Source: an uncultured Hyphomicrobiales bacterium | Lineage (GTDB): Bacteria; Bacteroidota; Ignavibacteria; Kapaibacteriales; UBA2268 | Direction of reading: 5' to 3' | DNA length: 64,000 bases | Assembly (NCBI GenBank): GCA_964577665.1 | Contig: CAZOBD010000004.1 | Span: 81-64,080, forward strand | Part shown: one piece after another, positions 747 through 53,745 of the stretch | Layout: each line of letters opens with the position of its first letter | How positions within the stretch are numbered: the first letter of the stretch is position 1 | Notes under the pieces: generated by a model | What the model was told of the DNA's origin: nothing | The model's database searches: none | Seen by the model: the letters and a program-made list of their open reading frames with translations, nothing else | Made by a program: the position numbers and the translations under genes

Positions 747-1268
747 TTATTCTGCCTTATCTGTTTCAGACTTTTCTTCTTCTTTTGTTATTTCCGTTTC
801 TTTTTCTGGTGCTTTTTCTGGTGCTTTTTCTGGTGCTTTTTCTGGTGCTTTTTCTGGTGCTGCTTTAATATTTTTATCTTTCTTGGATTTATCCTCACCT
901 TCAGGTACTCCGAAGAGCCCTCCGTATGCCATACCGTCCGCCAGACCTTTATTTTTGCGGTATTCGAAAAGTCTGTCGGGGAGTAAAAGTGTCAGATGTC
1001 TCAAAACAGTATCTTCAAGCACCAAAAAACGTTCGAGAATAGGAATTGTTGCGGGGGTAGAGTTAAATACGATATGGACGTAAAACCCGTTAAACTTTTT
1101 GTTAATGGGGTATGCCAGTCTCTTGCGTCCCCAGCGGTCCAGTTCGGAAATTTCTCCGCCATGGTTTTCAATGTAACCGGTCACTTTTTCTATAACAGAC
1201 TCAATGTCTGTATCTTCCAGAGCCGCATTTACAATGAAAGTCGTTTCGTATCGACGGCGTAAGCTCAT
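747..1268 (-). CDS. rpsF: 30S ribosomal protein S6 with C-terminal low-complexity (APEK)5/acidic extension
   Basis: 173 aa; N-terminal RRYETTFIVNAALEDTDIESVIEKV...GGEI...DRWGRKRLAYPI matches the bS6 fold signature; sits directly upstream of rplI. Confidence 0.85.
   Translation of the reverse strand: MSLRRRYETTFIVNAALEDTDIESVIEKVTGYIENHGGEISELDRWGRKRLAYPINKKFNGFYVHIVFNSTPATIPILERFLVLEDTVLRHLTLLLPDRLFEYRKNKGLADGMAYGGLFGVPEGEDKSKKDKNIKAAPEKAPEKAPEKAPEKAPEKETEITKEEEKSETDKAE
808..872. repeat. 5 tandem copies of a 15-bp unit (CTTTTTCTGGTGCTT) inside rpsF, encoding (APEK)5 on the - strand
   Basis: Direct reading of sequence 808-872; produces the spurious antisense ORF 742..1083 (FSGAFSGAF...). Confidence 0.8.
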
Positions 1269-1706: not shown

Positions 1707-4700
1707 ATGAAAAAAGTACTGATAGTAGAAGACCACAGGCATACTAAAGAAATGTTCCTCAGGAAACTTGAAAATACCGGTTTTGAAGTGCAGACAGCAG
1801 AAACCGGACAGGAAGCGTTTGACAAAGCCGCCGTGTTTTATCCGGACATTATACTGCTCGATTATTATCTGCCTGATTTCAACGGCAGGGAAGTGATAAA
1901 AAAATTGAGGGAAATGAATTTACATTTTCCGTTTATTGTCATCACAGCCATTGATGAGGTTCACACTGCCGTGGAAATGATGAAAATGGGAGCATCGGAT
2001 TATCTTGTCAAAGACAGACAGCTTATAGAACTTATCCCCTCTCAGATACATAAAGTATTGAAACAAAAAGCTAATGTCAGAAAGCTGAAGCACTCAGACG
2101 ACTATCTTTTGGAAAGCAACAGGCGGTTTTATGATCTTTTTCAAAATTCCATCGACCCTGTTTTTTATATTGATAAAAAGGGAGATTTCATCGAATTCAA
2201 CAATGCCTTTAAAAATATTTTTGAATTTGACAACCGGGATACACTGACGCAAAGCTTCAAAACATTTTTTGAAAACGAAGATGAATTTAATCTGCTGATG
2301 GAAGACCTGCAAAACCGTCAAATTAAAAACCGTCTTGTTACCCTGAAGACCTCCTCGAATAAAAAGATTGAATGCACTTTGAACATAATTCCCCGGCAGG
2401 ATTCAGGCGATGATTTTTATGATTATCTGGTAATAGCCCATAAAAGCGAAAAGGAAGCATACCCCTACGGCAAAAGTGATCTTGATGAAAATTTTGCAAA
2501 AAGCATCATTGAAATAGCCCAATCTATCGTCTTGGTGCTCAATAAAGAAGGGAAAATTCTGCATTATAATACCTATCTGGAAGGTCTCACCGGCAAACCG
2601 CTCTCCGAAACATCAGGCAGCGACTGGTTCGATACTTTTATTGAAAAGGATAAAAGCAGAGAGCTGCGCGAGTTTTTCCATAAAACTCTGCAGGAAAACA
2701 AAGTGGAGAGCATGGTTAACCCCATAGTTGCAAAAAACGGTGAAAAAATTGACATACAATGGTACGACCGTGTTTTGAAAAACGAAGAAGGTGAATCTGT
2801 GGGACTTTTGGCTATCGGGCATAATATTACGGAACGCACCCGCTATGAAGAAGAATTAAACCGAAGCCGCCGCCAAATGGAAAGCGTTTTCGACGGTATT
2901 CCGGATCTTATTTTTCATCTTTCACCTGATTTTAAAGTCAGCCGAACTAATAAAGCTGCTGCCGACCTGAAACCTGATTCCGAAGGCAGGGATATTTTCG
3001 ATGTATTACCGCAGCTAAATGATATTTCGATGTTTCTGCATAATGTGCAAACAAAAAGAGAGCGGCAAAAAACAGAAATAAAATCCCAAAGCTTAAGCAG
3101 ACAGCTTAAGGATAATTTCTGGGAAGTTACAGCCGTTCCCCTTATGCAAAGCGAGGGATGCGGTATAGTTCTTATATTAAGGAACATCACAGAAAGTAAA
3201 TTAGCCGGGCAGACCAAAAGTCTTCTTGCTTCTATCGTAGAATCTTCGGAAGATGCAATAATCGGGCTGTCCCTTGAAGGAGAAATACTAAGCTGGAATT
3301 TAGGCGCTGAAAAAACATACGGTTATTCACAATCGGAAATTATCGGCAGACATATTTCACTAATAGTTCCAAAAGATAGGCATACTGCCATTGAAAAAAC
3401 TCTCGAAAGGGTAAAAAACAAAGAGATTATAGAGCGATATGAAGCCTACCATATCAAAAAAAACGGAGAGAGAATTTTTGTTTCACTAACTGTCTCATAT
3501 TTTGAAGATGCTCAAAACAACGCTGTAGGCGTTTCTGTTATTTCCAGAGATATAACAAAGTCTAAAAAAGCAGAAAAAGCCTTGCAGGAAAGCAAAACCC
3601 GCTTTAAAGAGCTTTACGACAATATGAGCAGCGGAGTAATCTTTTATGAAGCTGCCCTTAACGGCGAAGATTTTATCATCAAGGATATGAATCCTGCCGC
3701 AGAGAAAATTGAAAAATTGAGTAAATCCGAGCTTATTCACAAAAGACTAAGTGAAATAGTGCCGAAAGACCTGAATAAGGGACTTTTCGACATATACAAG
3801 CAGGTTTGGCAAAGCGGCGAACCGCAGGAGTATCTGTTTACCTTTTATCAGGATGCTGATAAAATCAGCGGTTGGCGCAAAAATTATATCTACAAGCTGC
3901 CATCAGGAGAAATCGTTTCGATTTTTGACGATACATCCGAGAAAATTGCATCAGAAGAAGCTTTAAAAGAAAGCGAAGAGCGCTACCGCGGCTTCGTGCA
4001 GAATTTCAAGGGAATAGCATTCCGCTGGACCGTCGATTATATACCCCTGCTTTTTCACGGTTCTGTCAAGGAAATTACAGGATACCAAGAAGAAGACTTT
4101 ACCCAAAAAAGAATAAAATGGGGAGACATTATCCATCCCAAAGACATGGAATCAATCAAAGCCCAAAGTGAGCTCGTAGGTATCATGCCAAATTACGAAC
4201 ACGATTTCGAGTACCGCATTATCCGTCGTGACGGCGAAACGGTATGGGTGCACGAGCACCTTCAGAATATTTGTGATGAAGACGGTAATCTCCAATACAT
4301 ACAGGGTACGATATATAACATTACCGAACGGAAAAAAGCAGAATTTGACTTGAAACGCTCTCAGGAGCAGCTTCGAAATCTTGCCATGCACCTTGAAACT
4401 GCACGTGAAGAAGAGAAAAAGAGAATTGCCCTTGAAATACATGACGAACTAGGCCATGCTTTGACTGCTCTTAAGCTGGACCTGGCATGGCTGCTAAAGA
4501 AAAAATTTCTCCGAAGGGAAGCCCTTCTCGACAAGATCAGAACAATGTATGAAATAATAGAATCGACAATCCGTAAAGTGCGTTTAATCTCTACCGAACT
4601 GCGTCCCAGCGTTTTGGATCATTTCGGTTTGGTAGCGGCTATTGAATGGCAGGCGAAAGAATTTCAGAAACGTACTGCATGCAGAACCCGGCTTACTATA

Positions 4701-8368: not shown

Positions 8369-9856
8369 ATGGAACAGACCGCTGACCTGACCATAGACGT
8401 AAACTCTTATACGCTGACAGCCTTCTTGCTCTATATGCTGATTATAGTAGGCATAGGCATATTCTCTTCAAAATTTTCCTCCAAAGGTATGGCAAACTTT
8501 TTTCTCGGGGGAAGGAAGCTAAACAGATACGTTGTTGCCCTGTCTGCGGTAGTATCAGGACGCAGCGCGTGGCTGCTTTTAGGTTTTACGGGAATGGCTT
8601 ACGTTAGGGGTATGTCGGCAATATGGGCTGCCGCCGGCTATATTGTCTCTGAGTTTCTCCTTTTCTTTTTTTACGCCCCCAGACTGAGAAATTTTACCGA
8701 AAAAAGAGACTGCATAACTCTCCCCGATTTCTTTGCAGAAAGGTTTAATGACAGAACCGGTTCTCTGCGCATAATATTGGTTTCCGTAATAGTTCTCTTT
8801 ATGGTTAGTTATGTATCGGCGCAGTTCGTCGGCGGCGGTAAGGCATTCGCTTCCAGTTTCGGATTAAGCAATACGGCAGGAGTTTTAATAACTGCCGGAA
8901 TAGTTTTGTTTTACACCGTAATAGGAGGATTCCTCGCAGTCAGCCTTACCGATATGCTGCAGGCAATTTTCATGATTATAGCTCTTTTAGTCCTGCCGGT
9001 TGTAGCTATTGTAAATTTCGGCGGCTGGGAGCTAATAACAGCCGAGCTTGCCCGCACGGACACATTATTCTTAGATCCTCTGGCACTTTCGGGAGGGGCG
9101 CTTATCGGATTTCTCGGTATCGGATTGGGTTCGCCGGGTAATCCTCACATTTTAATCCGGTATATGTCCATAGAAAATTCAAAACATCTGAAAGCATCAG
9201 CATATATAGGTACTATCTGGAATGTGCTGATGGCTGTCGGAGCTTTGTTTATCGGTATAGCAGGCAGAGCATATTTTCCTGATTCGGCTTTGCTGCCGGG
9301 TAATGATCCCGAAAACCTGTATCCTCTTCTTGCCGAGAACCAGCTTCATCCCATACTTTTCGGTATGATAATATCCTCAATTTTTGCTGCAATAATGTCC
9401 ACATGCGATTCACAGCTTCTGGTAGCCGCTTCCAGTATTGTAAGGGATATTTATCAAAAGGTTATCAAAAGAGGCAGAGTAGTTTCAGAAAAAACTCTAA
9501 TGATCCTAAGCAGAGTGATGGTAACTGTGCTGGTAGTAGCAGCGCTGATTCTTGGAATGCTTGCTCAAGAGCTGGTTTTCTGGCTCGTTTTATTTGCCTG
9601 GGCAGGTCTTGGAGCTGCTATAGGCCCCGTTTCCATTTTAGCACTGTTCTGGAAGAAGACAAGCTTGTCAGCAGTAACAGCCGGTATGCTGACAGGTACT
9701 TTTACCGTTATTATATGGTATTACATACCGTCTTTGAATGAACTGATGTATGAGCTGGTACCCGCATTTTTTCTAAGTACAGCCGTTACAATTATTGTCA
9801 GCTTGTTTACAAAGGCTCCTGAAAATTCCGAAGCAATGTTTAAGGATATGGAATAA
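8369..9856 (+). CDS. Sodium:solute symporter family (SSF; PutP/PanF-like) transporter
   Basis: 495 aa polytopic membrane protein with SSF-like blocks (GGRKLNRYVVALSAVVSGRSAWLLLG, GGFLAVSLTDMLQA). Confidence 0.75.
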   Translation: MEQTADLTIDVNSYTLTAFLLYMLIIVGIGIFSSKFSSKGMANFFLGGRKLNRYVVALSAVVSGRSAWLLLGFTGMAYVRGMSAIWAAAGYIVSEFLLFFFYAPRLRNFTEKRDCITLPDFFAERFNDRTGSLRIILVSVIVLFMVSYVSAQFVGGGKAFASSFGLSNTAGVLITAGIVLFYTVIGGFLAVSLTDMLQAIFMIIALLVLPVVAIVNFGGWELITAELARTDTLFLDPLALSGGALIGFLGIGLGSPGNPHILIRYMSIENSKHLKASAYIGTIWNVLMAVGALFIGIAGRAYFPDSALLPGNDPENLYPLLAENQLHPILFGMIISSIFAAIMSTCDSQLLVAASSIVRDIYQKVIKRGRVVSEKTLMILSRVMVTVLVVAALILGMLAQELVFWLVLFAWAGLGAAIGPVSILALFWKKTSLSAVTAGMLTGTFTVIIWYYIPSLNELMYELVPAFFLSTAVTIIVSLFTKAPENSEAMFKDME

Positions 9857-9861
9857 CCATG

Positions 9862-10030
9862 ATTTAGGAAAATCACACAAAGGGATGATTATTTTTAAGC
9901 AAGATGTCAGACACCTTTGAGGTGTCGGACATCTGATTATCAAAAAACATCCCCTCTTGAGAGCAATGACCTAACAATTGGAGGAAAAAGATGTCCAACA
10001 TCTGGCAGATGTCGGACATCTGAAGGGCAA
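9862..10030. repeat. Intergenic palindromic repeat cluster: one copy of module C (…CCATGATTTAGGAAAATCACACAAAGGGATGATTAT…, minus orientation) plus two GATGTCNNACATC-type hairpins (9903-9933, 9990-10020)
   Basis: Module C recurs at 12790-12835, 12955-12998, 13673-13715, 37506-37548 and 53140-53180; hairpin arms recur at 37287, 49363, 56667 and 60817. Confidence 0.7.
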
Positions 10031-10404: not shown

Positions 10405-12549
10405 ATGAAAAAATTATTTACCTTCATTGCTGTTTTCATTCTTTTCTCGTTTAACGCATCATTTTCTCAGGATATTGTCAGCACTGATCCACAGCCGAGA
10501 AACGTAGTGCTCGAAGAATTCACGGGCATTTACTGCGGTTTTTGTCCCTACGGACATGAAATAGGTCAGGCAATACAGGACAATAATCCCGGCAGAGTAG
10601 TACTGATTAATATTCATGCAGGCAGTTATGCCAATCCGCAGCCCGGAAGCGGGCATCCTGACTTCAGAACACCCTATGGCGACGCGCTTGTGCAGATGTC
10701 TAATCTTGCCGGTTACCCGGCAGGTCAGGTCAACAGACAGCTTTTTTCAGGAGAAGAATATCAGCAGCAGCGAGCCGGAGCTCTTGCCCTAAGCAGAGGC
10801 GGATGGGAAGCTGCTTCTAACGTAATTCTGGCGGATGGTAATTCTCCCGTGAATATTGGAGCAAAAGTTGAAAGAAAATCCCTTACTACACTTGAAATCA
10901 CTGTTGAGCTGTACTACACATCTGATGTTTCCCAAAACAACAAACTTAATGTAGTCCTTCTGGAAAACGGCTTCGTAGGTTATCAGGGAGGCAGTAAAGG
11001 CGGCGATGATTATGTACATAATCATATTTTGAGAGACATGATTACAGGACAGTGGGGCGAAGTCATATCAGAGACTTCGCAGGGTTCCCTTGTTACAAAA
11101 ACATACACTTACGAACTTACCGACAGGGTCGATCCCTTGGGAAGCGAGCTTCAGCTTGCATTTTTCGTTACAGGAGCGGACAACAAATATATTTATACCG
11201 GTACCGGGATTGAAGTTCCCGGAATAGAACCTAATGCTAAACTTACTACAACCGATGAACCATTAAAAGCAATTTTCAGCGGAAGCACGGTGGAAAAGAC
11301 TGCTGCCCTTGAAAATATTTCCGATATGGAAATCACATTTGATATTACCTTGAGTGCAATTTCGGAAACTGCTGCCGGATGGCAAGCCGGACTAAAATAT
11401 CCTGACATTACTCCTCTTACTTTGGCACCGGGTGAATCCCGTGAAATATCTTATTACATTACATCAGATAATGAATACGGTAAAATGAGCGTAGAGCTGA
11501 ATGCCGCAGAGAAGGAAACTGAACTTATGCTTTCCTATTCCGACGGACTGAAAGTAATCTCAGCGGATGCAGAGAATTTCCTTGTGGCAGATAAAGCCGA
11601 AGAATCTTATTCCATCAAGCAGTTTATTCAGGATGCAGGATATTACGATTTTCTCGAAATATATCCTGAAGAATACGAATTTATAAGCAATCTTATGAGT
11701 AATGCAGAAACGATTGTATGGGACGCCGGCGTAAATTATTCTCTTACAACAAATGACATTAACTCACTTATTAATAAGATGAACAATGACGTTAATCTGC
11801 TGATTTTAGGAAACAGAATAATCGGCAATCTTAGCGGAGCAAATGCACTCGGATTTTTCGGAACGAATTATCTGGGTTATTCCACTCAGGGATACGGAAG
11901 CTCTCCCTGGCGGGTATGGCTGTCGGGAGTAAGCGGCGACCCCATAACAGGCTCTCTTGGGTTGAATTTTGAAGGAAACCTCATACAATGGCTTATTTCT
12001 ATAGTTGAAATAACCGATCCTCAAACTACAACACCAATACTGCATTTCACAAATACCGGCAAAAGAGTTATTTATAATTCACAAACTCAGACGAGAGATA
12101 CTTTTGATATTAAAGGGGAAGATGCCGTTTTCGGAGTGAAAATTGATAAAGGAGCTAGCAAACATGTGCTAATAGGTATTACTCCTTATGTTATCGTTGA
12201 TCAAAACAGAAGAGAAATAATTGTAAGAGAAGCCCTGAACTGGATAAACGGCGTAGTTGATGTAGAAGACAACTCTTTGAATGCATCATCAAATGTTTCT
12301 GCAAGTCCGAATCCTGCTGAGAATTTTCTTAATCTCCGTTATAATATAACCGGAACTAAATCTTCGCAGGTATCAATAAAAGTGGTTGATAATTTCGGCA
12401 GAATAGTTGCCTGCACTAAAACAATGCACCTTAATCCCGGAAATTATACGGAATATCTCGACCTGAGAAAAATTTCCGCCGGATCATATAATGTATTGGT
12501 CAGCATAAACGGCAAAACCGAGACAGAAAAGATAATTGTAATAAAATAA
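10405..12549 (+). CDS. Secreted protein with T9SS (Por) C-terminal sorting domain; N-terminal region with thioredoxin-like CxxC (EEFTGIYCGFCP), possibly Omp28-like
   Basis: Signal peptide; CGFC motif near N-terminus; C-terminal ~80 aa beta-sandwich tail (…SPNPAENFLNLRYNI…SYNVLVSINGKTETEKIIVIK) typical of T9SS CTDs. Confidence 0.55.
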   Translation: MKKLFTFIAVFILFSFNASFSQDIVSTDPQPRNVVLEEFTGIYCGFCPYGHEIGQAIQDNNPGRVVLINIHAGSYANPQPGSGHPDFRTPYGDALVQMSNLAGYPAGQVNRQLFSGEEYQQQRAGALALSRGGWEAASNVILADGNSPVNIGAKVERKSLTTLEITVELYYTSDVSQNNKLNVVLLENGFVGYQGGSKGGDDYVHNHILRDMITGQWGEVISETSQGSLVTKTYTYELTDRVDPLGSELQLAFFVTGADNKYIYTGTGIEVPGIEPNAKLTTTDEPLKAIFSGSTVEKTAALENISDMEITFDITLSAISETAAGWQAGLKYPDITPLTLAPGESREISYYITSDNEYGKMSVELNAAEKETELMLSYSDGLKVISADAENFLVADKAEESYSIKQFIQDAGYYDFLEIYPEEYEFISNLMSNAETIVWDAGVNYSLTTNDINSLINKMNNDVNLLILGNRIIGNLSGANALGFFGTNYLGYSTQGYGSSPWRVWLSGVSGDPITGSLGLNFEGNLIQWLISIVEITDPQTTTPILHFTNTGKRVIYNSQTQTRDTFDIKGEDAVFGVKIDKGASKHVLIGITPYVIVDQNRREIIVREALNWINGVVDVEDNSLNASSNVSASPNPAENFLNLRYNITGTKSSQVSIKVVDNFGRIVACTKTMHLNPGNYTEYLDLRKISAGSYNVLVSINGKTETEKIIVIK

Positions 12550-12589: not shown

Positions 12590-12975
12590 CGGTCCCATTT
12601 TTTTTTCATCTGTTTATTTTATGCCCCACCCTAACCCTCCCCAAAGGGAGGGAATTCAATGATATTGCTCCCTCCCCTTGGGGAAAGCCGGGGTGGGGTC
12701 TCATACGGTTTTTCATCTCATTCCCAAACTCCGATTTGGGAATGTACTTTTCTTTCAAAACTCTGTTTTGCATTAACTCGTAAACAATCAACTCCTTGTG
12801 TGATTTTCCAAAATCATGGGCGTTTCATCTGTTTATATTCGATCCCTCCCCGGTACTCCCTTACAAGAAAAGGAAGGAGAAATATTATTGAAGCCCCTTA
12901 TTTATAAGGGGGTTTGGGGGATCTCTTCTATCGATTTCATTTTTTTTCCAAATATTCATCTCCTTGTGTGATTTC
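12590..12975. repeat. Mosaic of palindromic repeat modules: G/C-rich hairpin (CCCCACCC…GGGTGGGG with nested CCCTCCCC…GGGAGGG), module A (TCCCAAACTCCGATTTGGGA), two copies of module C
   Basis: 12700-12780 is the reverse complement of 53181-53260; modules shared with loci at 13522, 37160 and 53140; unusually G+C-rich for this AT-rich genome. Confidence 0.75.
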
Positions 12976-13521
12976 TTAAATCATGGGGGTTTCATATAGC
13001 ACACTCTGCCTTGTGCAGTTAATATTCAAACTGAGAATATCTGGACGAGAGTAATGTCCTGAAGGATCGAAATTTTGTCTTTCTCTTAAGACGGAGCTTA
13101 AATCCAGTTCAGCCGTGATAAATGCTTCTTTTTCACAAACAGGTTCGATTATCCATGATCCATCAGGGGCAGCAATGCAGGAACCGCCGCCGGCAGGCAT
13201 ACTTTTCATTTTAGATTTTATCAAAGATGCATGAGGCAGTTCGTCTGAAATATTTTTTGTAAAGAGTATTGAAGAAGCAGAAATAACAAAACTCCGCGAC
13301 TCTTTTGCAATAAAGCGGGCAATGTCATAAGTATTTTCCAGACTGCCGGGCCAGACAGCTATATGGACATTTATACCCTGAGCATACATTGCGCTTCTTG
13401 CCAGCGGCATCCAGTTTTCCCAGCAGTTAAGCCCCCAGAGAGTAAAACCGTCAAGCTTATGTGCCGCGATACCGCTGCCGTCACCTATCCCCCATACGAG
13501 TCTTTCTTCATAAGTAGGCAT
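12976..13521 (-). pseudogene. Truncated nitrilase / carbon-nitrogen hydrolase (C-terminal part only, catalytic Cys block [11 protein letters not shown] present, N-terminal Glu/Lys blocks missing)
   Basis: 181-aa ORF begins at conserved internal [12 protein letters not shown] block; the ATG lies exactly at the edge of repeat module B and the last 5 codons are encoded by repeat module C. Confidence 0.6.
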
Positions 13522-13724
13522 GGGGTTTCAGATGGACTCCACTTTTAAAGTGGAGTCCATCTACGAATAAATTTTTCACCATCCCCTTGGGGAGGGCTTG
13601 GGTGGGGTCTCTTACGGTTTTTCTTTTACAATACGATTTTTCCTTCAATATATGGCAAATCTACCAAAAATAATCATCCCCTTGTGTGATTTTCCCAAAT
13701 CATGGTTGTTTCATTTAAAGAAAT
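13522..13724. repeat. Mosaic repeat cluster: module B perfect palindrome AGATGGACTCCACTTTTAAAGTGGAGTCCATCT, G-rich module (CCCCTTGGGGAGGGCTTGGGTGGGG), module C
   Basis: Module B recurs at 37467-37499; G-rich module recurs at 12678 and (inverted) 53395-53440. Confidence 0.75.
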
Positions 13725-16700
13725 TTATTTTTTCATTATTTTTGCATAAAAAATATCGGTGCCGCTGCTTAGAATTACTAAGTAAGCTCCGTCAGGCTTT
13801 CCGCTGAGGTCTAATCGAGTTTCGGCACCGGATGATACGCGCTTCTCTAAAATCTGCCTGCCAAGCATATCCTTAACTGTTATTCGTAATTCACCCGTTA
13901 AATGATTCAATGGAGTAATATTGAAAACACCTTCTGAAGGATTGGGATAAATTTTGAAAGGCAATGCTTTTAGGCTGATTTCATCAACGCTTGAGACTAC
14001 ATTGTAAGGATTGGACATCTCCGAGCATCCCCACTCATTGAATATTTCTACGGTATAATTACCAAGCTTGTCAATCTCATAAGTTCTTTCATCCGCCCCG
14101 AAAATTCGCTTTCCGTCATAATACCATCTGTATCCTGCTGCTTTAACCGTTTCCAAAAGGCTGCCTTGTTTCTGCCACAGCGGAGGTTTTTCCGGCTTTT
14201 CTTTCTGCTCAACGGTTATCTCGTCATAAGCCTTGCAGTTATCAGCAGTAAAAGCGGTAACTGTATATTTACCGGGCTCTGTTATTTTTATTGAACGTGA
14301 GTCTCCTCCGTTTGACCATTCATATTTTGTAAAGCCGAAATTAACACTTAAGGTCAGTTCTTCGCCTTCGCAGAGCCAGCCTTCGCCGGAAGTGGAAATC
14401 TTTAAATCAGGTACTGAAAGCACTTCTACCGCAACACCTCGAGACTTGGCATTACACCCGCTTTCGTCTTCCACTATCAAAGAATAAACACCTTCTTTTT
14501 TTACAATGATTTCTTTTGAAGTCTCGCCGGTTGACCAGAAATAATTTTCATAATCGCCCATTGCTCTGATAATTACACTGTCTCCCCGGCAAAATTCCGT
14601 TTCTCCGATTACTTCTACTTCGGGCTGGGGCAGATTGCAGTCCAAAAGAGGTATTTCCCAAACTCCCCTGCCGTAAGTGCCTGCAATAAGTTTTTCAGAA
14701 TTTTCCTGAATTTTGAGCTCTGAAACAATAACGTTAGGCAAAGCAGCGCCATAACTCTCCCACCAGCCGGAGCCGTAATCGGAATAATAAACACCGACAT
14801 CAGTACCTATATAGAGCCTGTCGGGTGAATTTTTTTGATAAACTATAGTGTTTACAGGTATATTCGGCATATTGCCGCTCAGATTAACAGGGTTTTCATC
14901 ATCATACCGTACAACTTTATGATTCGGATCAAATCCAGAATAAGTAATCCAGACTCGTTTATTATTATTAGGATCAACTTCGATTGAACTTATTCCTGCT
15001 GCCGCTGTCTGTATCTTCTTCCATGTATCCCCGCCGTCATAAGTTACGTACAAATCACTTAAAGTACATGCGTAAATCGTTTTTGAATCCGATGGAGCTA
15101 CTTTAATATAGCGAAAAGCCGTACCATTCAGATTAGTAGTTTTTTTCCAGGAATCACCCCTGTTAGTTGACTTGTAAATATTTTGAAAACCAACATATAT
15201 TGTTCTGCCGTCGTTTGGATCTATAGCAATGGGAGTAACCCATGCGCTGTTTTCCTGTACTTGATAAACGGATATAATGGGTCCGTCAAAGTCTTTTCCG
15301 AAATTGGTTGATAAATAAAAAGAGCCGTATGGATTAGAAGAATAGCAGTACCTCGGGTTAGACGGATCAATGGCACACATCATGCCGTCGCCTGCGCCAA
15401 CATGCGTCCATTTTCCGTTTTGATATCTGCTGGTACCGTTATCCTGAGAACCTGCAATAATGTAATCATCTCCGCTTTGTGAAATATCCACTGAGTAAAA
15501 CTGCGTAATGGACATTCCGTCGCTGATAAAATGCCATGACGAACCGCCGTTTGTAGTGTAATCAATGCCGCCGTCGTGAGCTGCAAAAAGCTTAGTAGAA
15601 TTATTTTGGTATTCCATATCGTGAATATCAGCATGGACATAAGGCTTGCCATAATACCCAATCCAATGTGCGTTCATATCCCATGAATAACCAAAATTAC
15701 CCGATTTCCAAATATTAATGCCTCCGGTATGAATAGTATTGGTATTATTAGGGTGAACAGCGAGACAGAGATCATACCAGCCCTGCCCTGTTTGAGCGTC
15801 TCCGCCTGTGCCTTTGTATCTGCCGAGAAGATTAGGAGTACTATTATCTGTAACTTTCTGCCATGTCTTTCCCATATCCGTAGATATCTGAACAGAATGA
15901 AAAGATTTGGTGTTTATTATGGAACATAAAGCATACACATAATTTGAGTTTTTTCTTGTAACAGCCAGTGCAATCCTGATAACGTCGCTGAATTGCTTCA
16001 TTAACTCCCAGTTTCTGCCGTTATCGGAAGAGCGGTATATGGCAGTGCCTCCGGTATATGAAAATGTGGATGCATATACATAATTCGGATCACCGGGATG
16101 GAACTCCATGTCCTTAAAATATCCGCCGGGTGATACCTGATCCCAAAATTTCCCGCCGTCAGTTGTGCGGTATATTCCTTTTGCGGTTGCCGCAAGAACA
16201 ATATTCTCATTTTGGGGATGAACCAGGATACGTGTTATCTGATTTCCGCTTTCAAAATCGTAAGAAAGCCCTGTGGTCTCCCAAGCAGCTCCCCCGTTAG
16301 TAGTTTTTAAAAGACCTATGCTGTAGTAAGGCGAAGTAACGCTGAGAGAACCTACGGCATCACCGGTAGCTACATACACAATATTCGGATTAGTTTTTGC
16401 AATGGCAATATCAGAAACGCCGAGGGAGAGAAAATTGGTATATGGAAATACCGACCAGGTGCTGCCTCCGTCGGTAGATTTCCATACACCTCCCGAAGCA
16501 GCTCCTGCCCATAGTTCATTGAAATTTGCCGGATGAAATCTTATTACATTTACTCTGCCGATACCTTGATGCCTTACTGATGGCGTAACATCAGGCGTAT
16601 TAACCGGACCGAGAAGTTTCCACTCAAGGTCCTTAGCTGCAAGAGGCTGATCACCGTTTTTTTCATATAACATAAGTTCATTTTTCTTAAACTCAGTTAC

Positions 16701-17009
16701 TTCTTTAAGAATTTCACCGCCGTCGGGTATAGTGCCGTTTGGAAAAACTCTTGATTCCCAAAAGTACTCCCAGCGCTTAAACTGCTTCCAGCCCCGTTTC
16801 ATTTCATCGGGTAAGCCTTCCCACTGAACAGAGAAAGCATCCCTGATCTGATAAAAATCAGGCTTTTCGATTTTTTCAAGTTCTTTCAGCGGGCGGTTGT
16901 TTTTCTCAAGAAGTTCGTCGGAAATATTCTTCTCGGAAAGTACAGTTCCTCCGGCAATGATAAGTGAAAAAATAATTAATAAATATTTTTTAATTGTCGT
17001 CGTATGCAT
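13725..17009 (-). CDS. Large secreted BNR/Asp-box repeat beta-propeller protein (GH74/sortilin-Vps10-like) with T9SS C-terminal sorting domain
   Basis: 1094 aa; signal peptide; ≥8 S/T-x-D-x-G-x-T/S-W Asp-box motifs (STDGGSTW, TTNGGAAW, TTDGGKFW, SSDNGRNW, STDMGKTW, TYDGGDTW…); Ig-like Cys-containing region; CTD …IYPNPSEGVFNITPL…LVILSSGTDIFYAKIMKK. Confidence 0.7.
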   Translation of the reverse strand: MHTTTIKKYLLIIFSLIIAGGTVLSEKNISDELLEKNNRPLKELEKIEKPDFYQIRDAFSVQWEGLPDEMKRGWKQFKRWEYFWESRVFPNGTIPDGGEILKEVTEFKKNELMLYEKNGDQPLAAKDLEWKLLGPVNTPDVTPSVRHQGIGRVNVIRFHPANFNELWAGAASGGVWKSTDGGSTWSVFPYTNFLSLGVSDIAIAKTNPNIVYVATGDAVGSLSVTSPYYSIGLLKTTNGGAAWETTGLSYDFESGNQITRILVHPQNENIVLAATAKGIYRTTDGGKFWDQVSPGGYFKDMEFHPGDPNYVYASTFSYTGGTAIYRSSDNGRNWELMKQFSDVIRIALAVTRKNSNYVYALCSIINTKSFHSVQISTDMGKTWQKVTDNSTPNLLGRYKGTGGDAQTGQGWYDLCLAVHPNNTNTIHTGGINIWKSGNFGYSWDMNAHWIGYYGKPYVHADIHDMEYQNNSTKLFAAHDGGIDYTTNGGSSWHFISDGMSITQFYSVDISQSGDDYIIAGSQDNGTSRYQNGKWTHVGAGDGMMCAIDPSNPRYCYSSNPYGSFYLSTNFGKDFDGPIISVYQVQENSAWVTPIAIDPNDGRTIYVGFQNIYKSTNRGDSWKKTTNLNGTAFRYIKVAPSDSKTIYACTLSDLYVTYDGGDTWKKIQTAAAGISSIEVDPNNNKRVWITYSGFDPNHKVVRYDDENPVNLSGNMPNIPVNTIVYQKNSPDRLYIGTDVGVYYSDYGSGWWESYGAALPNVIVSELKIQENSEKLIAGTYGRGVWEIPLLDCNLPQPEVEVIGETEFCRGDSVIIRAMGDYENYFWSTGETSKEIIVKKEGVYSLIVEDESGCNAKSRGVAVEVLSVPDLKISTSGEGWLCEGEELTLSVNFGFTKYEWSNGGDSRSIKITEPGKYTVTAFTADNCKAYDEITVEQKEKPEKPPLWQKQGSLLETVKAAGYRWYYDGKRIFGADERTYEIDKLGNYTVEIFNEWGCSEMSNPYNVVSSVDEISLKALPFKIYPNPSEGVFNITPLNHLTGELRITVKDMLGRQILEKRVSSGAETRLDLSGKPDGAYLVILSSGTDIFYAKIMKK

Positions 17010-22887: not shown

Positions 22888-24255
22888 TTAACCCTCCTTC
22901 ACCACTTTGTAAGTTGTTACATTGCCACCACATATAAGTCTTATAAAGTAAATGCCGTTAGGGTATAAGGAAAGATTAATTGTTAAAGAACTACTGTCTA
23001 TTAAATCTTCCAATAAAATAGTCCCATTGTTATTGATTATTTCATAATATTGATTAGTGCTACTGCAGTTAACTTCAATATTAATTGTTCCATTAGTTGG
23101 ATTGGGATAAAAAGTACTATCAACAATAGAATCATCATTAATGCTACTAGGTTCCCATCGAGCTTTTACAACAGCGCAGATATCATACTTACCCGCTCCA
23201 ATATATTTATTGTTTTTTGAAACATCTAAGGACTTTGCTGAAGTAATAATATTATTGTACTGATATGTAATTATCTCATTTAATATGTCATATACAAATA
23301 CATCTCTATAAGCAGAAATACCAATAACTAAATATCTATCATCAATTGAATATGCAATCGATCTAAAGCAGGTATCTTTTTTAGTTATGGTCTGTTTTAA
23401 TTCTCTTTTTTCAAAATCCCATATTTTTACGGGTCCACCTGCAGATGCCAGATATTTTCCGTCGTGGGAAAAACAGATGTCCCTGATAGCGTAATCGTGT
23501 GTGCCGAGAATACCTTCGTATTTCATTGGGTTTGTATTAAAAATGTGAATTGGGCTATTTGAACCATTTTGATAAAATGTGCTAACAACAAAGTGTTCCT
23601 CGTCAGGTGAGAATTTTATTTTTCCATACTCCGTATCGGTTGATTGATATGCAATTTCATCAGTTCCTAAATCCCAAATACATATTTTACATTTTAATTG
23701 CCCGATACGTGCAACAACAGCTAAGTATTTGCTACTCGGTGAAATATCTATTGATTTAAAGGAAACCGAATCTTCATCAATAGTGAATGTTTTAACTAAT
23801 TTACCTGTTTCCGTTTCAAATAAATATGCAGAGTTATTTTTATAGCTGCCGTCATAATAGTAGAAGTTACCTCCTGCAACTGCAATAATGCTGCCGTCAG
23901 AATTAAAGTCAACACAATTGGTATAATTTGGCTGCTCAAATTCTCTAATCGAGTCTCCTGTCTCAACATCAAAAAGCTTCGGGTTCCTGTAATCAGCCGC
24001 AACCGCAAGATACCTGCTGTCGGGAGAAAACTTTACGCGGTTTATTTGTACACCTAATTCCTTTACCCACAGCACATCGGGGTCATCCTGTGCAAAAGCA
24101 GGAAGAGAAAGAAGAAGTAAAAGCGCCGCCGCCAGAAGAAGGGATGATCCCCCCAGCCCCCTTATAAATAAGAGTGTGTTTGAATTGCTGTGCTCTGATT
24201 TTGTTTTCAGAGCTGCCTTCTCCACCTTTACCAGAAAACTTTTTTTTGTAAACAT
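22888..24255 (-). CDS. WD40-like/beta-propeller repeat protein with T9SS C-terminal sorting domain (paralog A)
   Basis: Repeated …(K)FSPD(S/E)RYLA…/…FSHDGKYLASAGG…KIWDFEKRELK blocks; CTD …FYPNPTNGTINIEV…IYFIRLICGGNVTTYKVVKEG; start placed at MFTKKSF (conserved with paralog B) rather than ORF-track 24285. Confidence 0.6.
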   Translation of the reverse strand: MFTKKSFLVKVEKAALKTKSEHSNSNTLLFIRGLGGSSLLLAAALLLLLSLPAFAQDDPDVLWVKELGVQINRVKFSPDSRYLAVAADYRNPKLFDVETGDSIREFEQPNYTNCVDFNSDGSIIAVAGGNFYYYDGSYKNNSAYLFETETGKLVKTFTIDEDSVSFKSIDISPSSKYLAVVARIGQLKCKICIWDLGTDEIAYQSTDTEYGKIKFSPDEEHFVVSTFYQNGSNSPIHIFNTNPMKYEGILGTHDYAIRDICFSHDGKYLASAGGPVKIWDFEKRELKQTITKKDTCFRSIAYSIDDRYLVIGISAYRDVFVYDILNEIITYQYNNIITSAKSLDVSKNNKYIGAGKYDICAVVKARWEPSSINDDSIVDSTFYPNPTNGTINIEVNCSSTNQYYEIINNNGTILLEDLIDSSSLTINLSLYPNGIYFIRLICGGNVTTYKVVKEG

Positions 24256-24382
24256 AGTTTTTCCTTTTATTTTTTCAAAAAACACACCAATTATAAATAT
24301 AATAAAAAATAAGATAAATAGTTACAAAATAAAAAACATAAAGAATCGTAAAATTATTAAAGCTACAAAATAAGGAATTTTT

Positions 24383-25203: not shown

Positions 25204-26565
25204 TTATCTCTTCACAATAATTTTAATTGTTTTAAAAAAATCGCTGCAAGAAATATTACAGAAGTAAGTGCCTGATGATAATCCGTCTGCATTTATGTTC
25301 ATTGTATTTAAACCTGCTTCAAGATACCCCTCAAATACTTTTTTAACTAATTGACCGTTGATATTATTTAAATCAATATTAGTTATGCCGTTATGTGGAA
25401 GGTTGAAACTTATAACAGCTTCATTTGTTATTGGGTTAGGATAAATAATGCTGTTGTTTTCATTAAAAGGTTCCTCAATAATACTTGGTACCCATTTTGC
25501 ATTTAATAATAATACTCTATATCCATAACCGGAACCAATATATTGATTATCTGATGAAACATCTAACGATAGTGGTGTACCTTTTACAGAATTAAGATGA
25601 TAAACATATTCAGTATTATTTATATCATATATAAAAACATCTCTATAAAATAAAAAACCCATAACAAGAAAATTGTCATCCATAGAATATGCAATCGATC
25701 CAAAGCCGGTATCTTTTTTAGTTATAGTCTGTTTTAATTCTCTTTTTTCAAAATCCCAAATCTTAACATCTCCCGCTGCAGATGCCAGATATTTCCCGTC
25801 GTGGGAAAAACAGATGTCGGCGATAGCATAATCATGTGAGCCGAGAATACCTTCGTTTTTCATTGGGTTTGTAGAAAATACATAGATATAGTTGGTTTTT
25901 GATTCTGGATATGGGTAGGTTTGGCATATAACGAAATGCTGATCATCAGGTGAAAATACAACTTTACTTATATACTGATAATTGCTTTGATATATTATTT
26001 CATTTGAAATTAAATTCCAAATTTTTATTAAATACCTATTTGTTCCACTTTTAAAAACAGCCGCTAATAATTCACCATTGTGTGAAATATCAATTGAAGT
26101 AACATAAACTGAATCTTCATTCAGATCAATTTTTTTTAATTCATCTCCAGTTTCCACACTATATATATTGATGTAATCATTATATCCGGCGCTTGCTAAA
26201 AGAGAGCCGTCATCAGTAAAATCAAGTGTATTTGTTCCTCCACCAATAAATTCTCTAATCAAATCACCTGTTTCTACATCGAAAAGCTTCGGATTCCTGT
26301 AATCAGCCGCAACCGCAAGATACCTGCTGTCGGGAGAAAATTTCACGCAGTTGATTTTCACACCTAATTCCTTTACCCACACCACATCGGGGTCATCCTG
26401 TGCAAAAGCAGGAAGAGAAAGAAGAAGTAAAAGCGCCGCCGCCAGAAGAAGGGATGATCCCCCCAGCCCCCTTATAAATAAGAGTGTGTTTGAATTGCTG
26501 TGCTCTGATTTTGTTTTCAGAGCTGCCTTCTCCACCTTTACCAGAAAACTTTTTTTTGTAAACAT
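25204..26565 (-). CDS. WD40-like/beta-propeller repeat protein with T9SS C-terminal sorting domain (paralog B)
   Basis: First ~75 codons and ~210 bp of 5' region essentially identical at DNA level to paralog A (23975-24262 vs 26275-26572); second near-identical tract 23380-23530 vs 25695-25845; CTD …IYPNPITNEAVISFNL…TYFCNISCSDFFKTIKIIVKR. Confidence 0.6.
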   Translation of the reverse strand: MFTKKSFLVKVEKAALKTKSEHSNSNTLLFIRGLGGSSLLLAAALLLLLSLPAFAQDDPDVVWVKELGVKINCVKFSPDSRYLAVAADYRNPKLFDVETGDLIREFIGGGTNTLDFTDDGSLLASAGYNDYINIYSVETGDELKKIDLNEDSVYVTSIDISHNGELLAAVFKSGTNRYLIKIWNLISNEIIYQSNYQYISKVVFSPDDQHFVICQTYPYPESKTNYIYVFSTNPMKNEGILGSHDYAIADICFSHDGKYLASAAGDVKIWDFEKRELKQTITKKDTGFGSIAYSMDDNFLVMGFLFYRDVFIYDINNTEYVYHLNSVKGTPLSLDVSSDNQYIGSGYGYRVLLLNAKWVPSIIEEPFNENNSIIYPNPITNEAVISFNLPHNGITNIDLNNINGQLVKKVFEGYLEAGLNTMNINADGLSSGTYFCNISCSDFFKTIKIIVKR

Positions 26566-26639
26566 ATAAACCTCCACGGGATAAATTTTCAATTTTGCAA
26601 TTTACAATTTTCAATCAATTTAACAATGATTCAATTTTC

Positions 26640-27155: not shown

Positions 27156-27159
27156 TTTT

Positions 27160-27395
27160 CGACCCCTCCCCGTCCCTCCCTTACAAGTAAGGGAGGTAGC
27201 ATTAATTTTTAATTTTTCAATTATCTTATAAAATAGTTAATATTTTTTTAAAATCAAAATAATATAATCTGATACATACGAACAAAAGCCGCACTCAGCA
27301 AAGAATGCGGCTTTCTAACTATCAGTTTAGGGGAGTTCTAAATATTGCTAAACTGTCATTCCTGCATTCGCAGGAATGACAGTTTTTAGAACCCG
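27160..27395. repeat. Intergenic hairpins: CCTCCCTTACAAGTAAGGGAGG (27170-27200) and a ~60-bp imperfect palindrome GTTCTAAATATTGCTAAACTGTCATTCCTGC-ATTC-GCAGGAATGACAGTTTTTAGAAC (27330-27392)
   Basis: Direct reading; G/C-rich CCCTCCC motif shared with the other mosaic loci; sits between two minus-strand genes, so may act as terminator/insulator. Confidence 0.6.
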
Positions 27396-37159: not shown

Positions 37160-37580
37160 TTCAATGGGTGAACACGAAGGTTCGCCACTACATGCCAAAC
37201 AGAACAACGTAGGGGCAGACCTGCGTGTCTGCCCTGAAAAAGAACACGCAGTTCTATGGGCGAACACGCAGGTTCGCTACATTAAAGATGTCCAACATCT
37301 TTTTCCTCCATACTGTGCATCCCCTCCCCAAGAGGGGATTAAAGGGTGTGTTCCTTATACGTGAGATTCTGAAACAAGTTCAGAATGACATCCATGATTT
37401 CTTTTTGCATCTCATTCACAAACTCCGATTTGGGAATGTACTTTTCTTTCAAAACTCTGGGTTTTTAGATGGACTCCACTTTAAAAGTGGAGTCCATCTA
37501 CGAATAATCATCCCTTTGAGTGATTTTCCCGAATCATGGATGTTTTGTCTGAATTTTAAGTCTAAATGCCGAAGCTGCAG
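37160..37580. repeat. Largest mosaic repeat cluster (~420 bp): modules E, GATGTCCAACATC hairpin, G/C-rich CCCCTCCCCAAGAGGGGA, F (CTGAAACAAGTTCAG), A, B, C concatenated
   Basis: 37310-37395 is the reverse complement of 53395-53490; module B identical to 13530-13563; module E to 32905-32970; module C to 13673 etc. Confidence 0.8.
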
Positions 37581-53139: not shown

Positions 53140-53490
53140 AGCCATGATTAGGGAAATCACACAAGGAGATGATTATTTTAGAGTTAATGCAAAACAGAGT
53201 TTTGAAAGAAAAGTACATTCCCAAATCGGAGTTTGGGAATGAGATGTAAAATGTCATTCAAAGTACATTCCCAAATCGGAGTTTGGGAATGAGATGTAAA
53301 ATGTCATTCAAAGTACATTCCCAAATCGGAGTTCGGGAATGAGATGTAAAATGTCATTCTGTCCCTGTGATGAACTTGTTTCAGTATTGTTTCAGAATCT
53401 CACGGATGAGAGGGACACACCCCTTAATCACCTCTTGGGGAGGGGATATTCTTAACTTGAGATGCTGAAACAAGTTCAGCATGACAGCCA
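53140..53490. repeat. Mosaic repeat cluster incl. module C (inverted), 3x50-bp perfect tandem array (53211-53360) each with module A palindrome TCCCAAATCGGAGTTTGGGA, G-rich module, module F
   Basis: Direct reading; 53181-53260 = reverse complement of 12700-12780; 53395-53490 = reverse complement of 37310-37395. Confidence 0.8.
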
Positions 53491-53526
53491 AACGATTTTC
53501 AAAGGTAAAATACAAAAAATAAACAG

Positions 53527-53745
53527 ATGAAACAAAAAAATATTATTGATGATAAAATGAGCAATACAATGAAAAATATATTATCTGCCGTTTTCGCCAT
53601 TATCGTCGCACTTATTTTTCTTTATTTATTAGGCTTTTTGCTAAAAGTGGCATTTCAAGTTTTTTTTAGTGTTCTTGGTGTTATCATAGTGGTTCTAATA
53701 GCTCTGCCGGTTTATGTAATCTTAAGAAAAAAATTATTCAGATAA
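53527..53745 (+). CDS. Hypothetical small membrane protein
   Basis: 72 aa with two hydrophobic helices. Confidence 0.3.
   Translation: MKQKNIIDDKMSNTMKNILSAVFAIIVALIFLYLLGFLLKVAFQVFFSVLGVIIVVLIALPVYVILRKKLFR

Follow-up and report, generated by a model that had tools for sequence, protein, structure and literature searches.

A nitrilase gene remnant lacking its 5′ half at the terminus of a REP/MITE-like palindromic element: a probable deletion pseudogene

Introduction

Is a short nitrilase-like open reading frame (ORF) between two blocks of repeats a gene in its own right, or what was left of a longer one after the repeats had been at work? The question is raised by an ORF of 181 aa at 12976..13521 on the minus strand of a 64-kb stretch of genomic DNA, the whole of which was analysed here and is referred to as the window. 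The ORF is located in a spacer of 1,175 bp between two convergent genes, gene A (10405..12549, plus strand; Omp28 domain and T9SS tail) and gene B (13725..17009, minus strand; Sortilin/BNR repeats and T9SS tail). Enzymes of the nitrilase superfamily use a Glu-Lys-Cys triad and form one alpha-beta-beta-alpha sandwich to which both halves of the protein contribute. According to the original prediction, which was made from the letters of the window, the ORF carries the catalytic Cys block of the carbon-nitrogen hydrolases, lacks the N-terminal 120-150 residues with the catalytic Glu and Lys, and is truncated at both ends at the boundaries of repeat modules. The arrangement was regarded as direct evidence that repeats had been inserted into, or had replaced, coding sequence. 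In the present study, homology searches, alignments, repeat searches and hairpin folding were used for the analysis of the ORF, of its two junctions and of the surrounding repeats, which are designated modules A to E.

Results

Identity and extent of the remnant

The ORF matched the Pfam family CN_hydrolase (PF00795) with E=2.6e-10 and a score of 40.5 bits, above the gathering cut-off of 23.2, which bears out the assignment of its Cys block to the carbon-nitrogen hydrolases. Only profile positions 120-251 of 256 were covered; the N-terminal segment is absent, and the ORF does not hold a complete CN_hydrolase domain, which extends end to end over about 260-315 aa. By tblastn, alignment and the partial Pfam and NCBIfam matches, the nitrilase remnant proper comprises 175 codons (12997..13521, minus strand), equivalent to about residues 138-312 of a 313-aa branch-1 nitrilase, i.e. 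its C-terminal 57%. The remainder of the ORF, as seen from the ORF list and the alignment of module C, consists of six module-encoded codons (YETPMI) and TAA.

A search of 5.8 billion proteins resulted in 7,554 homologues, of which the best match apart from the protein itself was P0002, a protein of 313 aa with 71% identity to the remnant. When nine full-length homologues were compared to the window in all six frames by tblastn, one match was obtained, at 13521..12997, with 71% identity to P0002 and E=5e-86. P0002 aligned end to end with nitrilases and cyanide dihydratases of solved structure (PDB 8uxu, 3wuy, 8p4i and 8c5i; E=1e-47 to 1e-35). The remnant is colinear with the C-terminal 175 residues of these structures, among them Nit6803 (3wuy) and the cyanide dihydratases 8p4i and 8c5i, and has the NCWEN motif in common with them, including the catalytic Cys (residue 33) and the adjacent Glu; in contrast to them, it is without residues 1-137, hence without the catalytic Glu and Lys and about half of the sandwich.

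The model TIGR04048, the equivalog of the Nit6803 family with a curated cut-off of 502.6 bits, was matched by the ORF at positions 128-297 of 301 with 110.6 bits and by the intact homologues P0002 and P0009 with 183 and 179 bits, so that neither the remnant nor these intact homologues reached the equivalog cut-off. Since even an intact homologue scores only about 180 bits, the ancestral gene was a branch-1 nitrilase of a subfamily distinct from Nit6803 and not the Nit6803 equivalog.

The missing 5′ half

In the alignment with the nine homologues, Met1 of the remnant falls in column 139, two residues past the invariant Lys of HRKL, and 137-138 N-terminal residues are absent, a number within the predicted range. 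Both the catalytic Glu (FGE, residue ~45, column 46) and the catalytic Lys (HRKL, residue ~136, column 137) belong to the missing part, and Cys33 is the only member of the triad present. As Glu and Lys are missing, the remnant would be non-catalytic, in agreement with the earlier expectation; judged from the fold of the family, a protein without residues 1-137 could not be catalytic and is unlikely to fold. It is a fragment of a nitrilase family member and not a functional member.

Two observations had been named beforehand as contrary to a truncation, namely relatives of likewise about 180 aa and N-terminal blocks in another frame upstream, and neither was made. About 190 relatives over two samples have lengths of 310-330 aa: among the best 120 of the 7,554 database homologues, about 110 are 300-335 aa long, with 304-317 aa for nearly all of the set, and at 80 of the 80 species-representative genome loci listed P0002 aligned in a single frame from residue 15 or earlier to residue 300 or later, with ORFs mostly of 312-331 aa. 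Nitrilase N-terminal homology was not detected by tblastn with the nine full-length homologues in any frame of the 64-kb window. An extension of the alignment to 13599, seen with four of the queries, was rejected as a residual N-terminus because it consists of repeat DNA with three in-frame stops.

Just 203 bp lie between the ATG of the remnant and the stop codon of gene B, and therefore the 414-bp 5′ part is physically absent from this position and not just pushed aside by an insertion. A simple insertion of repeats into the gene is excluded, because the 414-bp 5′ part was not found beyond the inserted modules. Of the earlier statement that repeats had been inserted into or had replaced coding sequence, only the replacement is thus retained, and only for the 5′ end.

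The 3′ end and module C

The 3′ junction of the remnant is located at 12996/12997, within 1 nt. Nitrilase homology reaches the last conserved motif (…SGHYSRPD…NxxRQSVL) and continues to 12997, and the repeat similarity of module C starts with (T)ATGAAAC… at 12995/12996, as deduced from six aligned copies. The copy concerned, C2 (12950..12996, minus strand; sense strand (T)ATGAAACCCCCATGATTTAAGAAATCACACAAGGAGATGAATATTT), gives the ORF its last codons, (Y)ETPMI, and its stop codon, as had been noticed from the sequence. Behind RQ the remnant has a tail of 9 aa, 3 native and 6 from module C, compared to usually 6-8 aa in 111 homologues (range 4-12, one outlier of 28). The alignment indicates that the 3′ end is essentially complete and that module C took the place of no more than the ~3-5 final, variable codons and the stop codon. 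Of the two truncations originally proposed, that of the 5′ end is confirmed by the length of the relatives, while that of the 3′ end is not, given homology up to NxxRQ and SVL and a tail of ordinary length.

Module C occurs in a similar position, over or just past the stop codon, at two intact neighbouring genes. In the same sense, it overlaps the last codons and the stop codon of an intact SSF (sodium:solute symporter) gene at 9857 (…ATGGAATAA|CCATGATT), and copy C3 (about 13666..13714, minus strand) begins 10 nt past the stop codon of gene B. Because module C is found likewise at the ends of the SSF gene and of gene B, the 3′ end of the nitrilase is a normal gene end in the host genome. A further copy, C1, was found together with the linker TTTCATCTGTTTAT at 12782..12836 (minus strand). 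The copies at 9857 and 53142 are in inverted orientation to those at 12782, 12950 and about 13668. The hairpin of module C is weak (z=-1.5).

The 5′ junction and module B

The 5′ junction is located at 13520/13521, again within 1 nt. Upstream of it lies an extended module B unit of 50 nt (13521..13570), delimited by repeat search, folding and JGI contigs and 94% identical to 37458-37507. In the closest homologue the Met codon is preceded by CACAGAAAACTA, i.e. CACAGAAAACTA|ATG (H-R-K-L-M), whereas in the window the sequence is CCATCTGAAACCCC|ATG, matching the module B copy at 37458 and that on L098, a JGI contig of another organism. The left extension of the module, TGGGkTT…AGATGG, is present in L098 as well; repeat similarity to both copies begins at 13521, and the ATG does adjoin module B as predicted. 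The corresponding alignment column is Met in 74 of the 111 homologues, and the start codon of the remnant is most likely the native internal Met codon. A TGA is located three codons 5′ of the ATG, within the repeat, and the ORF call starts at that Met as a result.

The core of module B is a perfect palindrome of 33 nt (13530-13562; AGATGGACTCCACTTT-T-AAAGTGGAGTCCATCT) with a folding energy of -25.3 kcal/mol (z=-6.3), situated 8 nt upstream of the remnant ATG. This palindrome was recovered on 40 JGI metagenome contigs with GC contents of 32-46%. Conserved among the 40 copies is only RRAT-GGACTCCACTTT-N-AAAGTGGAGTCC-ATYY; the flanks are unrelated and contain an extension of the palindrome (RRAT…ATYY) with no separate direct repeat. 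Intergenic positions were observed for 39 of the 40 copies, most of them 2-26 nt from the 3′ end of an ORF, and one copy (L126) is an in-frame part of a T9SS tail domain. The location of this class of palindromes just after stop codons suggests transcriptional insulation rather than a promoter at the remnant. A sigma-70 promoter scan of the minus strand upstream of the remnant gave no site, the scan not covering Bacteroidota-type promoters. GTAG stands beside both window copies of module B (minus strand GTAG-ATGGACTCC; plus strand …ATCTACGAA) and is absent from most of the 40 JGI copies.

The repeat array and the 9-nt direct repeat

The array to the left of the remnant begins with module A (12618..12706), a G+C-rich REPIN-like double hairpin of 89 nt (-51.1 kcal/mol, z=-6.4), and includes the module D hairpin unit CATTCCCAAACTCCGATTTGGGAATG (12709..12765, plus strand; z=-4.2) and module E with the hairpin GCCCCTTATTTATAAGGGGG (12838..12925, plus strand), of which a copy is present at 27158-27212. 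Further copies of module D are present at 37403-37459 and, in a tandem of three perfect units of 50 nt, at 53210-53359, and module copies are clustered also at 37403-37548 and 53142-53359. On the right side, module B is followed by an orphan right half of module A (13571..13623, plus strand; 83% identical to 12662-14), which has no partner arm and no fold (z=+0.45) and therefore speaks for recombination or deletion events inside the array.

The modules are genuine repeats, with 2-3 matches per search pattern in the window and 0 in shuffled sequences. Repeated stable hairpins, as demanded of REP/REPIN sequences, are formed by modules A, B and D, and the location is extragenic, all module copies in the window lying outside large ORFs as do the intergenic module B copies of the JGI contigs. 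On the basis of sequence, the modules appear to behave as REP/REPIN/MITE-type repeats and are called REP/MITE-like here. Rfam at gathering thresholds recognised no family in the window. Of 133 fetched loci (1.65 Mb), only a Logan contig covering this locus contained modules A, C, D or E.

By exact-match search, the 9-nt sequence GGGGTTTCA was found only twice in 64 kb, at the 3′ junction (12986..12994, plus strand) and at the 5′ junction (13522..13530, plus strand), so that it brackets the remnant, and not a module, as a direct repeat; a rough estimate of the chance of this is 3e-4. Module C normally has it at its right end (C1, C2 and C3 read CATGGnnGTTTCAT) and module B in its left extension (37458 and L098 read TGGGkTTTyAGATGG), and a target-site duplication is therefore not needed for its explanation. 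Two further interpretations of the flanks were dropped. GTTTCAT as a site-specific target was given up, as 5 of its 17 copies are intergenic compared to an expected 17.6%, which is no enrichment. An integron gene cassette, which would show attC core sites of the type RYYYAAC … GTTRRRY around a promoterless ORF, was rejected because GTTTCAT/GTTTCAG do not fit GTTRRRY and the hairpins on the two sides are not related.

State of the remnant and comparison of loci

Across its 175 codons the remnant has no stop and no frameshift. Its GC content is 44%, and its GC3 of 37.7% is close to that of the host (38.2 +/- 5.9%); for both reasons, intact frame and host-like GC3, the gene is regarded as native and recently truncated. 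At 60 columns which are at least 98% conserved in the family, 57 residues are retained and three deviate: L18I, G29W (directly before the catalytic-Cys motif) and L45M. In 111 intact homologues the mean at the same columns is 0.31 deviations and the maximum 2. The composition and substitutions would fit a native gene that was cut fairly recently and is now under mildly relaxed constraint; a divergent lineage is another possible source of the surplus deviations at these conserved columns.

The comparison with orthologous loci, which had been proposed along with the prediction, was performed for gene A and yielded no informative counterpart: at its orthologues P0123 and P0124 (53-54% identical) there is no synteny and no adjacent nitrilase, and the spacers are short, AT-rich and without modules. 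None of the neighbours of the closest nitrilase (L001) is present in the window, and a scan of JGI metagenomes with a 30-mer of the lineage's own nitrilase gave 0 matches. For the 181-aa protein itself, an exact look-up returned no recorded contig. Logan contigs of the same organism (at least 99.96% identical) break off within the repeats on either side, at 12608, 12633 and 13676, and none spans the remnant; the one ending at 13676, the independent contig L004, stops inside copy C3.

Discussion

Origin of the truncated gene

The explanation that accounts best for these results, to which we assign a probability of roughly 0.7, is that the ORF is a 5′-deleted pseudogene of a chromosomal branch-1 nitrilase of ~315 codons, one endpoint of the deletion being tied to a REP/MITE-like element terminus. 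The missing 5′ half, the position of both junctions at nucleotide level, the repeat flanks and the intact 3′ end can be read directly at the locus. We infer from these features how the deletion arose, in what order the steps took place and that the remnant is not expressed. In the sequence of events proposed, the ancestral nitrilase would have followed gene B on the minus strand and, like other genes of this genome, would have carried a copy of module C where it ends. A deletion would then have taken the promoter and the first ~138 codons, with one end exactly at the terminus of the small palindromic module B unit. Most likely, a copy of the element inserted itself at codon 138 or beside it, and the loss came about afterwards, either when this copy recombined with one farther upstream or through an adjacent deletion anchored at the element end. 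That an ORF still persists would be due only to the recency of the event and to the position of the break, which coincides with a native internal Met codon. The gene is presumed to have once been intact at this site, the nearest relatives sharing no synteny with the locus.

Adjacent deletions associated with IS elements or MITEs and recombination mediated by repeats are known to yield truncated genes. Such events would constitute ordinary gene decay in a repeat-rich bacterial genome. MITEs have also been described as recombination hotspots (PMC10969869). The junction demonstrates an association with the module terminus and not the causal event, and to call it direct evidence of insertion into coding sequence, as was done originally, was too strong. 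On its two sides the remnant adjoins unlike modules, C and B, and a simple recombination between identical copies can therefore not be seen directly.

The exact end at a module terminus would also be expected if one module copy had been situated within the nitrilase and an inversion or translocation involving a second copy had split the gene, carrying its 5′ half, likewise adjoining a module, to another place. Inverted module copies (e.g. of module C) are present in the window, and the space searched for the other half was 64 kb of the genome. A split is nevertheless improbable, since N-terminal homology is lacking in the window and, when residues 1-137 of P0002 were compared with the database, no sequence exceeded 61% identity, compared to ~70% expected for this lineage, a weak negative from 59 scored candidates. 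L133 (SRR7048222), the one match from the same run series, was examined as the missing half and rejected, being a complete gene with an in-frame TAG and a GC content of 51%. The two copies of GGGGTTTCA, one per remnant end, and the position inside a module array between convergent genes might further suggest that a 522-bp piece of a nitrilase was carried into an existing array with GGGGTTTCA as the target-site duplication, the more so as DNA flanked by MITEs can be mobilised (PMC10969869). Such a capture has little to recommend it, as the 9-nt repeat is accounted for by the normal ends of modules C and B without any duplication, the flanking modules differ in kind and GC3 is host-like; moreover, the 3′ end is a natural gene end with module C placed as at intact genes, which is not expected of a random fragment.

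The window derives from a contig of a T9SS-bearing MAG of the FCB group, and the breaks of the independent Logan assemblies in the flanking repeats would be compatible with a short-read assembler having threaded a nitrilase segment between multi-copy repeats while the real gene is intact. This is very improbable in view of the 5′ junction, where nitrilase and repeat share at most 1-3 nt, far below an assembly k-mer, so that the junction must exist in the reads; a wrong path between repeats could shift the place of the remnant and not its join to repeat DNA at codon 138. The smallest probability is given to a naturally short or two-piece nitrilase, in which the C-terminal half functions alone or together with a separate N-terminal half. 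The intact ORF with its native Met start and its 57 of 60 near-invariant residues would suit such a protein, as would adjacent ORFs of 135 and 185 aa which are found on 20 contigs of another organism (L130) and of which the second starts at the same Met. Those two halves are, however, only 12 nt apart in the same frame with a single TAG between them, which points to a point mutation or recoding and not to a stand-alone half. The absence of an N-terminal half from the window and of the catalytic Glu and Lys, the full-length genes at all 80 listed loci, and a palindrome 8 nt upstream of the ATG of the class sited after stop codons, suggesting insulation over a promoter, likewise argue against it. 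The only other stand-alone C-terminal ORF examined, P0111 (210 aa), breaks at a different residue, 116, and was rejected as a natural short form in favour of an independent truncation; P0272 and P0262 were rejected as short forms because they are complete genes with one in-frame TAG.

Significance and relation to known repeat systems

For annotation, the deletion pseudogene favoured here means that the ORF should be flagged as a pseudogene with missing N-terminus and not be counted as nitrilase capacity of the organism. It provides a clean case, at nucleotide resolution, of gene loss tied to the end of a small palindromic repeat. The lineage is rich in repeats and little studied, and its repeats sit routinely on gene 3′ ends and interrupt short-read assemblies. 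The current understanding of nitrilases and of REP/MITE biology is not changed by it; it offers a modest lead into an undescribed repeat system. A bolder proposal, rather unlikely as it stands, is that the modules are non-autonomous elements, possibly not described before, of an uncultured bacterium of the FCB group, which join end to end via a shared terminal linker (GGGGTTTCA / TTTCATCTGTTTAT), settle on gene 3′ ends and cause element-anchored deletions; the remnant, with one GGGGTTTCA at either end and no third in 64 kb, would then be a fresh footprint. As a separate point, the module B palindrome is kept base for base, just after stop codons, in several organisms with GC contents of 32-46%, which would suggest that they have a trans-acting factor in common, be it a transposase or a terminator/RNA-binding protein.

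Several known systems resemble the modules in part. In Coxiella burnetii, QMITEs overlap gene 3′ ends by 1-50 bp without real truncation (PMC5896051). QMITE1 and QMITE2 are small hairpin repeats which give a protein its last residues and stop codon and barely alter its length, as does module C at the remnant and the SSF gene (at gene B it starts past the stop), and truncated QMITE copies resemble REPs (PMC5896051). In contrast to QMITEs, the window modules are stacked in mixed arrays and have no sequence similarity to them, and no combination of terminal inverted repeats with direct repeats was seen at the modules. REP, BIME and REPIN sequences, which occur with RAYT (Y1) transposases, are short extragenic palindromes arranged as singlets, inverted doublets and mosaic clusters, often past gene 3′ ends (PMC3116915, PMC3337134). 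Module A resembles a REPIN and its orphan half a REP singlet. The differences are that a GTAG head is found beside the window copies of module B and not beside most of the 40 JGI copies, and that the known examples are mostly from Proteobacteria. With deletions associated with IS elements or MITEs the locus shares one endpoint at an element terminus, another in neighbouring DNA, and a gene fragment adjoining an intact element end; in contrast to them, the deletion is here deduced from one present-day sequence, and no transposase is known for the modules. The palindromic elements of Rickettsia are reportedly small palindromic elements inserted in frame within coding regions (Ogata et al. 2000). 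The module B palindrome in the T9SS tail domain of L126, 1 of the 40 copies, is in frame likewise, whereas module B in the window is located outside the remaining coding sequence and is tied to a loss of coding sequence rather than to an in-frame addition.

Repeat modules at the borders of coding sequences

The 14-nt linker TTTCATCTGTTTAT is present in three copies in the window (12604-12617, 12823-12836 and 53519-53532), all of which border a G+C-rich hairpin module, and truncated versions of it, GTTTCAT and GTTTCAG, are found at the two junctions of the nitrilase remnant. Module C directly adjoins the stop codon of an intact sodium:solute symporter gene (8369..9856). Since the last codons and the stop of this gene (ATGGAATAA) align with the extended end of module C (module C and gene end together at 9838-9896), the C-terminus of the symporter may also be repeat-derived.

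The hairpin unit of module D forms three perfect or near-perfect tandem copies of 50 nt at 53210-53359, bordered by module C (53142-53179) and by further G+C-rich hairpins up to approximately position 53540. A 27-nt hairpin of the nitrilase-flanking array (12897-12923) has 93% matches at 24146-24172 and 26456-26482. These matches fall within a pair of paralogous genes (22888-24285 and 25204-26592), each coding for a WD40 beta-propeller with a T9SS tail; the two genes are 95% identical over 300 nt and 85% identical over 258 nt. The ORF 747..1268 (-) additionally contains, at 776-861, about 5-7 copies in tandem of the 12-nt unit CTTTTTCTGGTG.

Three Logan contigs that represent the same organism in independent short-read assemblies (L002, L003 and L004) end within repeat modules at 9995, 12608/12633 and 13676; therefore, the modules are multi-copy and fragment the assemblies.

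Distribution of the module B palindrome

The 33-nt palindrome of module B, RRAT-GGACTCCACTTT-N-AAAGTGGAGTCC-ATYY, occurs in the window at 13530-13562 and 37467-37499, where no Rfam family matches it. Every base of it is kept in 40 JGI metagenome contigs (L090-L129) of 32-46% GC, and the flanking sequences are unrelated among these contigs. The copies in the JGI contigs are intergenic in 39 of 40 cases, most of them 2-26 nt past the 3′-end of an ORF. The palindrome looks like a REP-like or terminator-like element common to several organisms.

In the JGI contig L126 the palindrome (3635-3667) lies in frame in the T9SS C-terminal sorting domain (…EINLERWTPLSKWSPSEEIRIF…) encoded by the ORF 2321-3847. 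Because 78 residues of this domain cover 65 profile positions, its sequence is consistent with a gain of 11 codons by in-frame insertion.

Nitrilase homologues with an in-frame TAG or a 5′-truncation in other organisms

Nitrilase homologues of two other organisms carry a single in-frame TAG just ahead of the catalytic HRKL motif (L130 3001-3978, also L131 and L132; L133 3001-3960). One of the two forms, …IKS*HRKLMPTYEE…, recurs on 20 contigs from several samples, and the TAG is a nonsense mutation that has become fixed, or else a stop that is recoded. Another organism has, on a contig of 2.55 Mb (L089 3001-3633), a 5′-truncated nitrilase remnant of 210 aa with homology only from residue 116 onward; as this remnant is independent, decay within the nitrilase family recurs.
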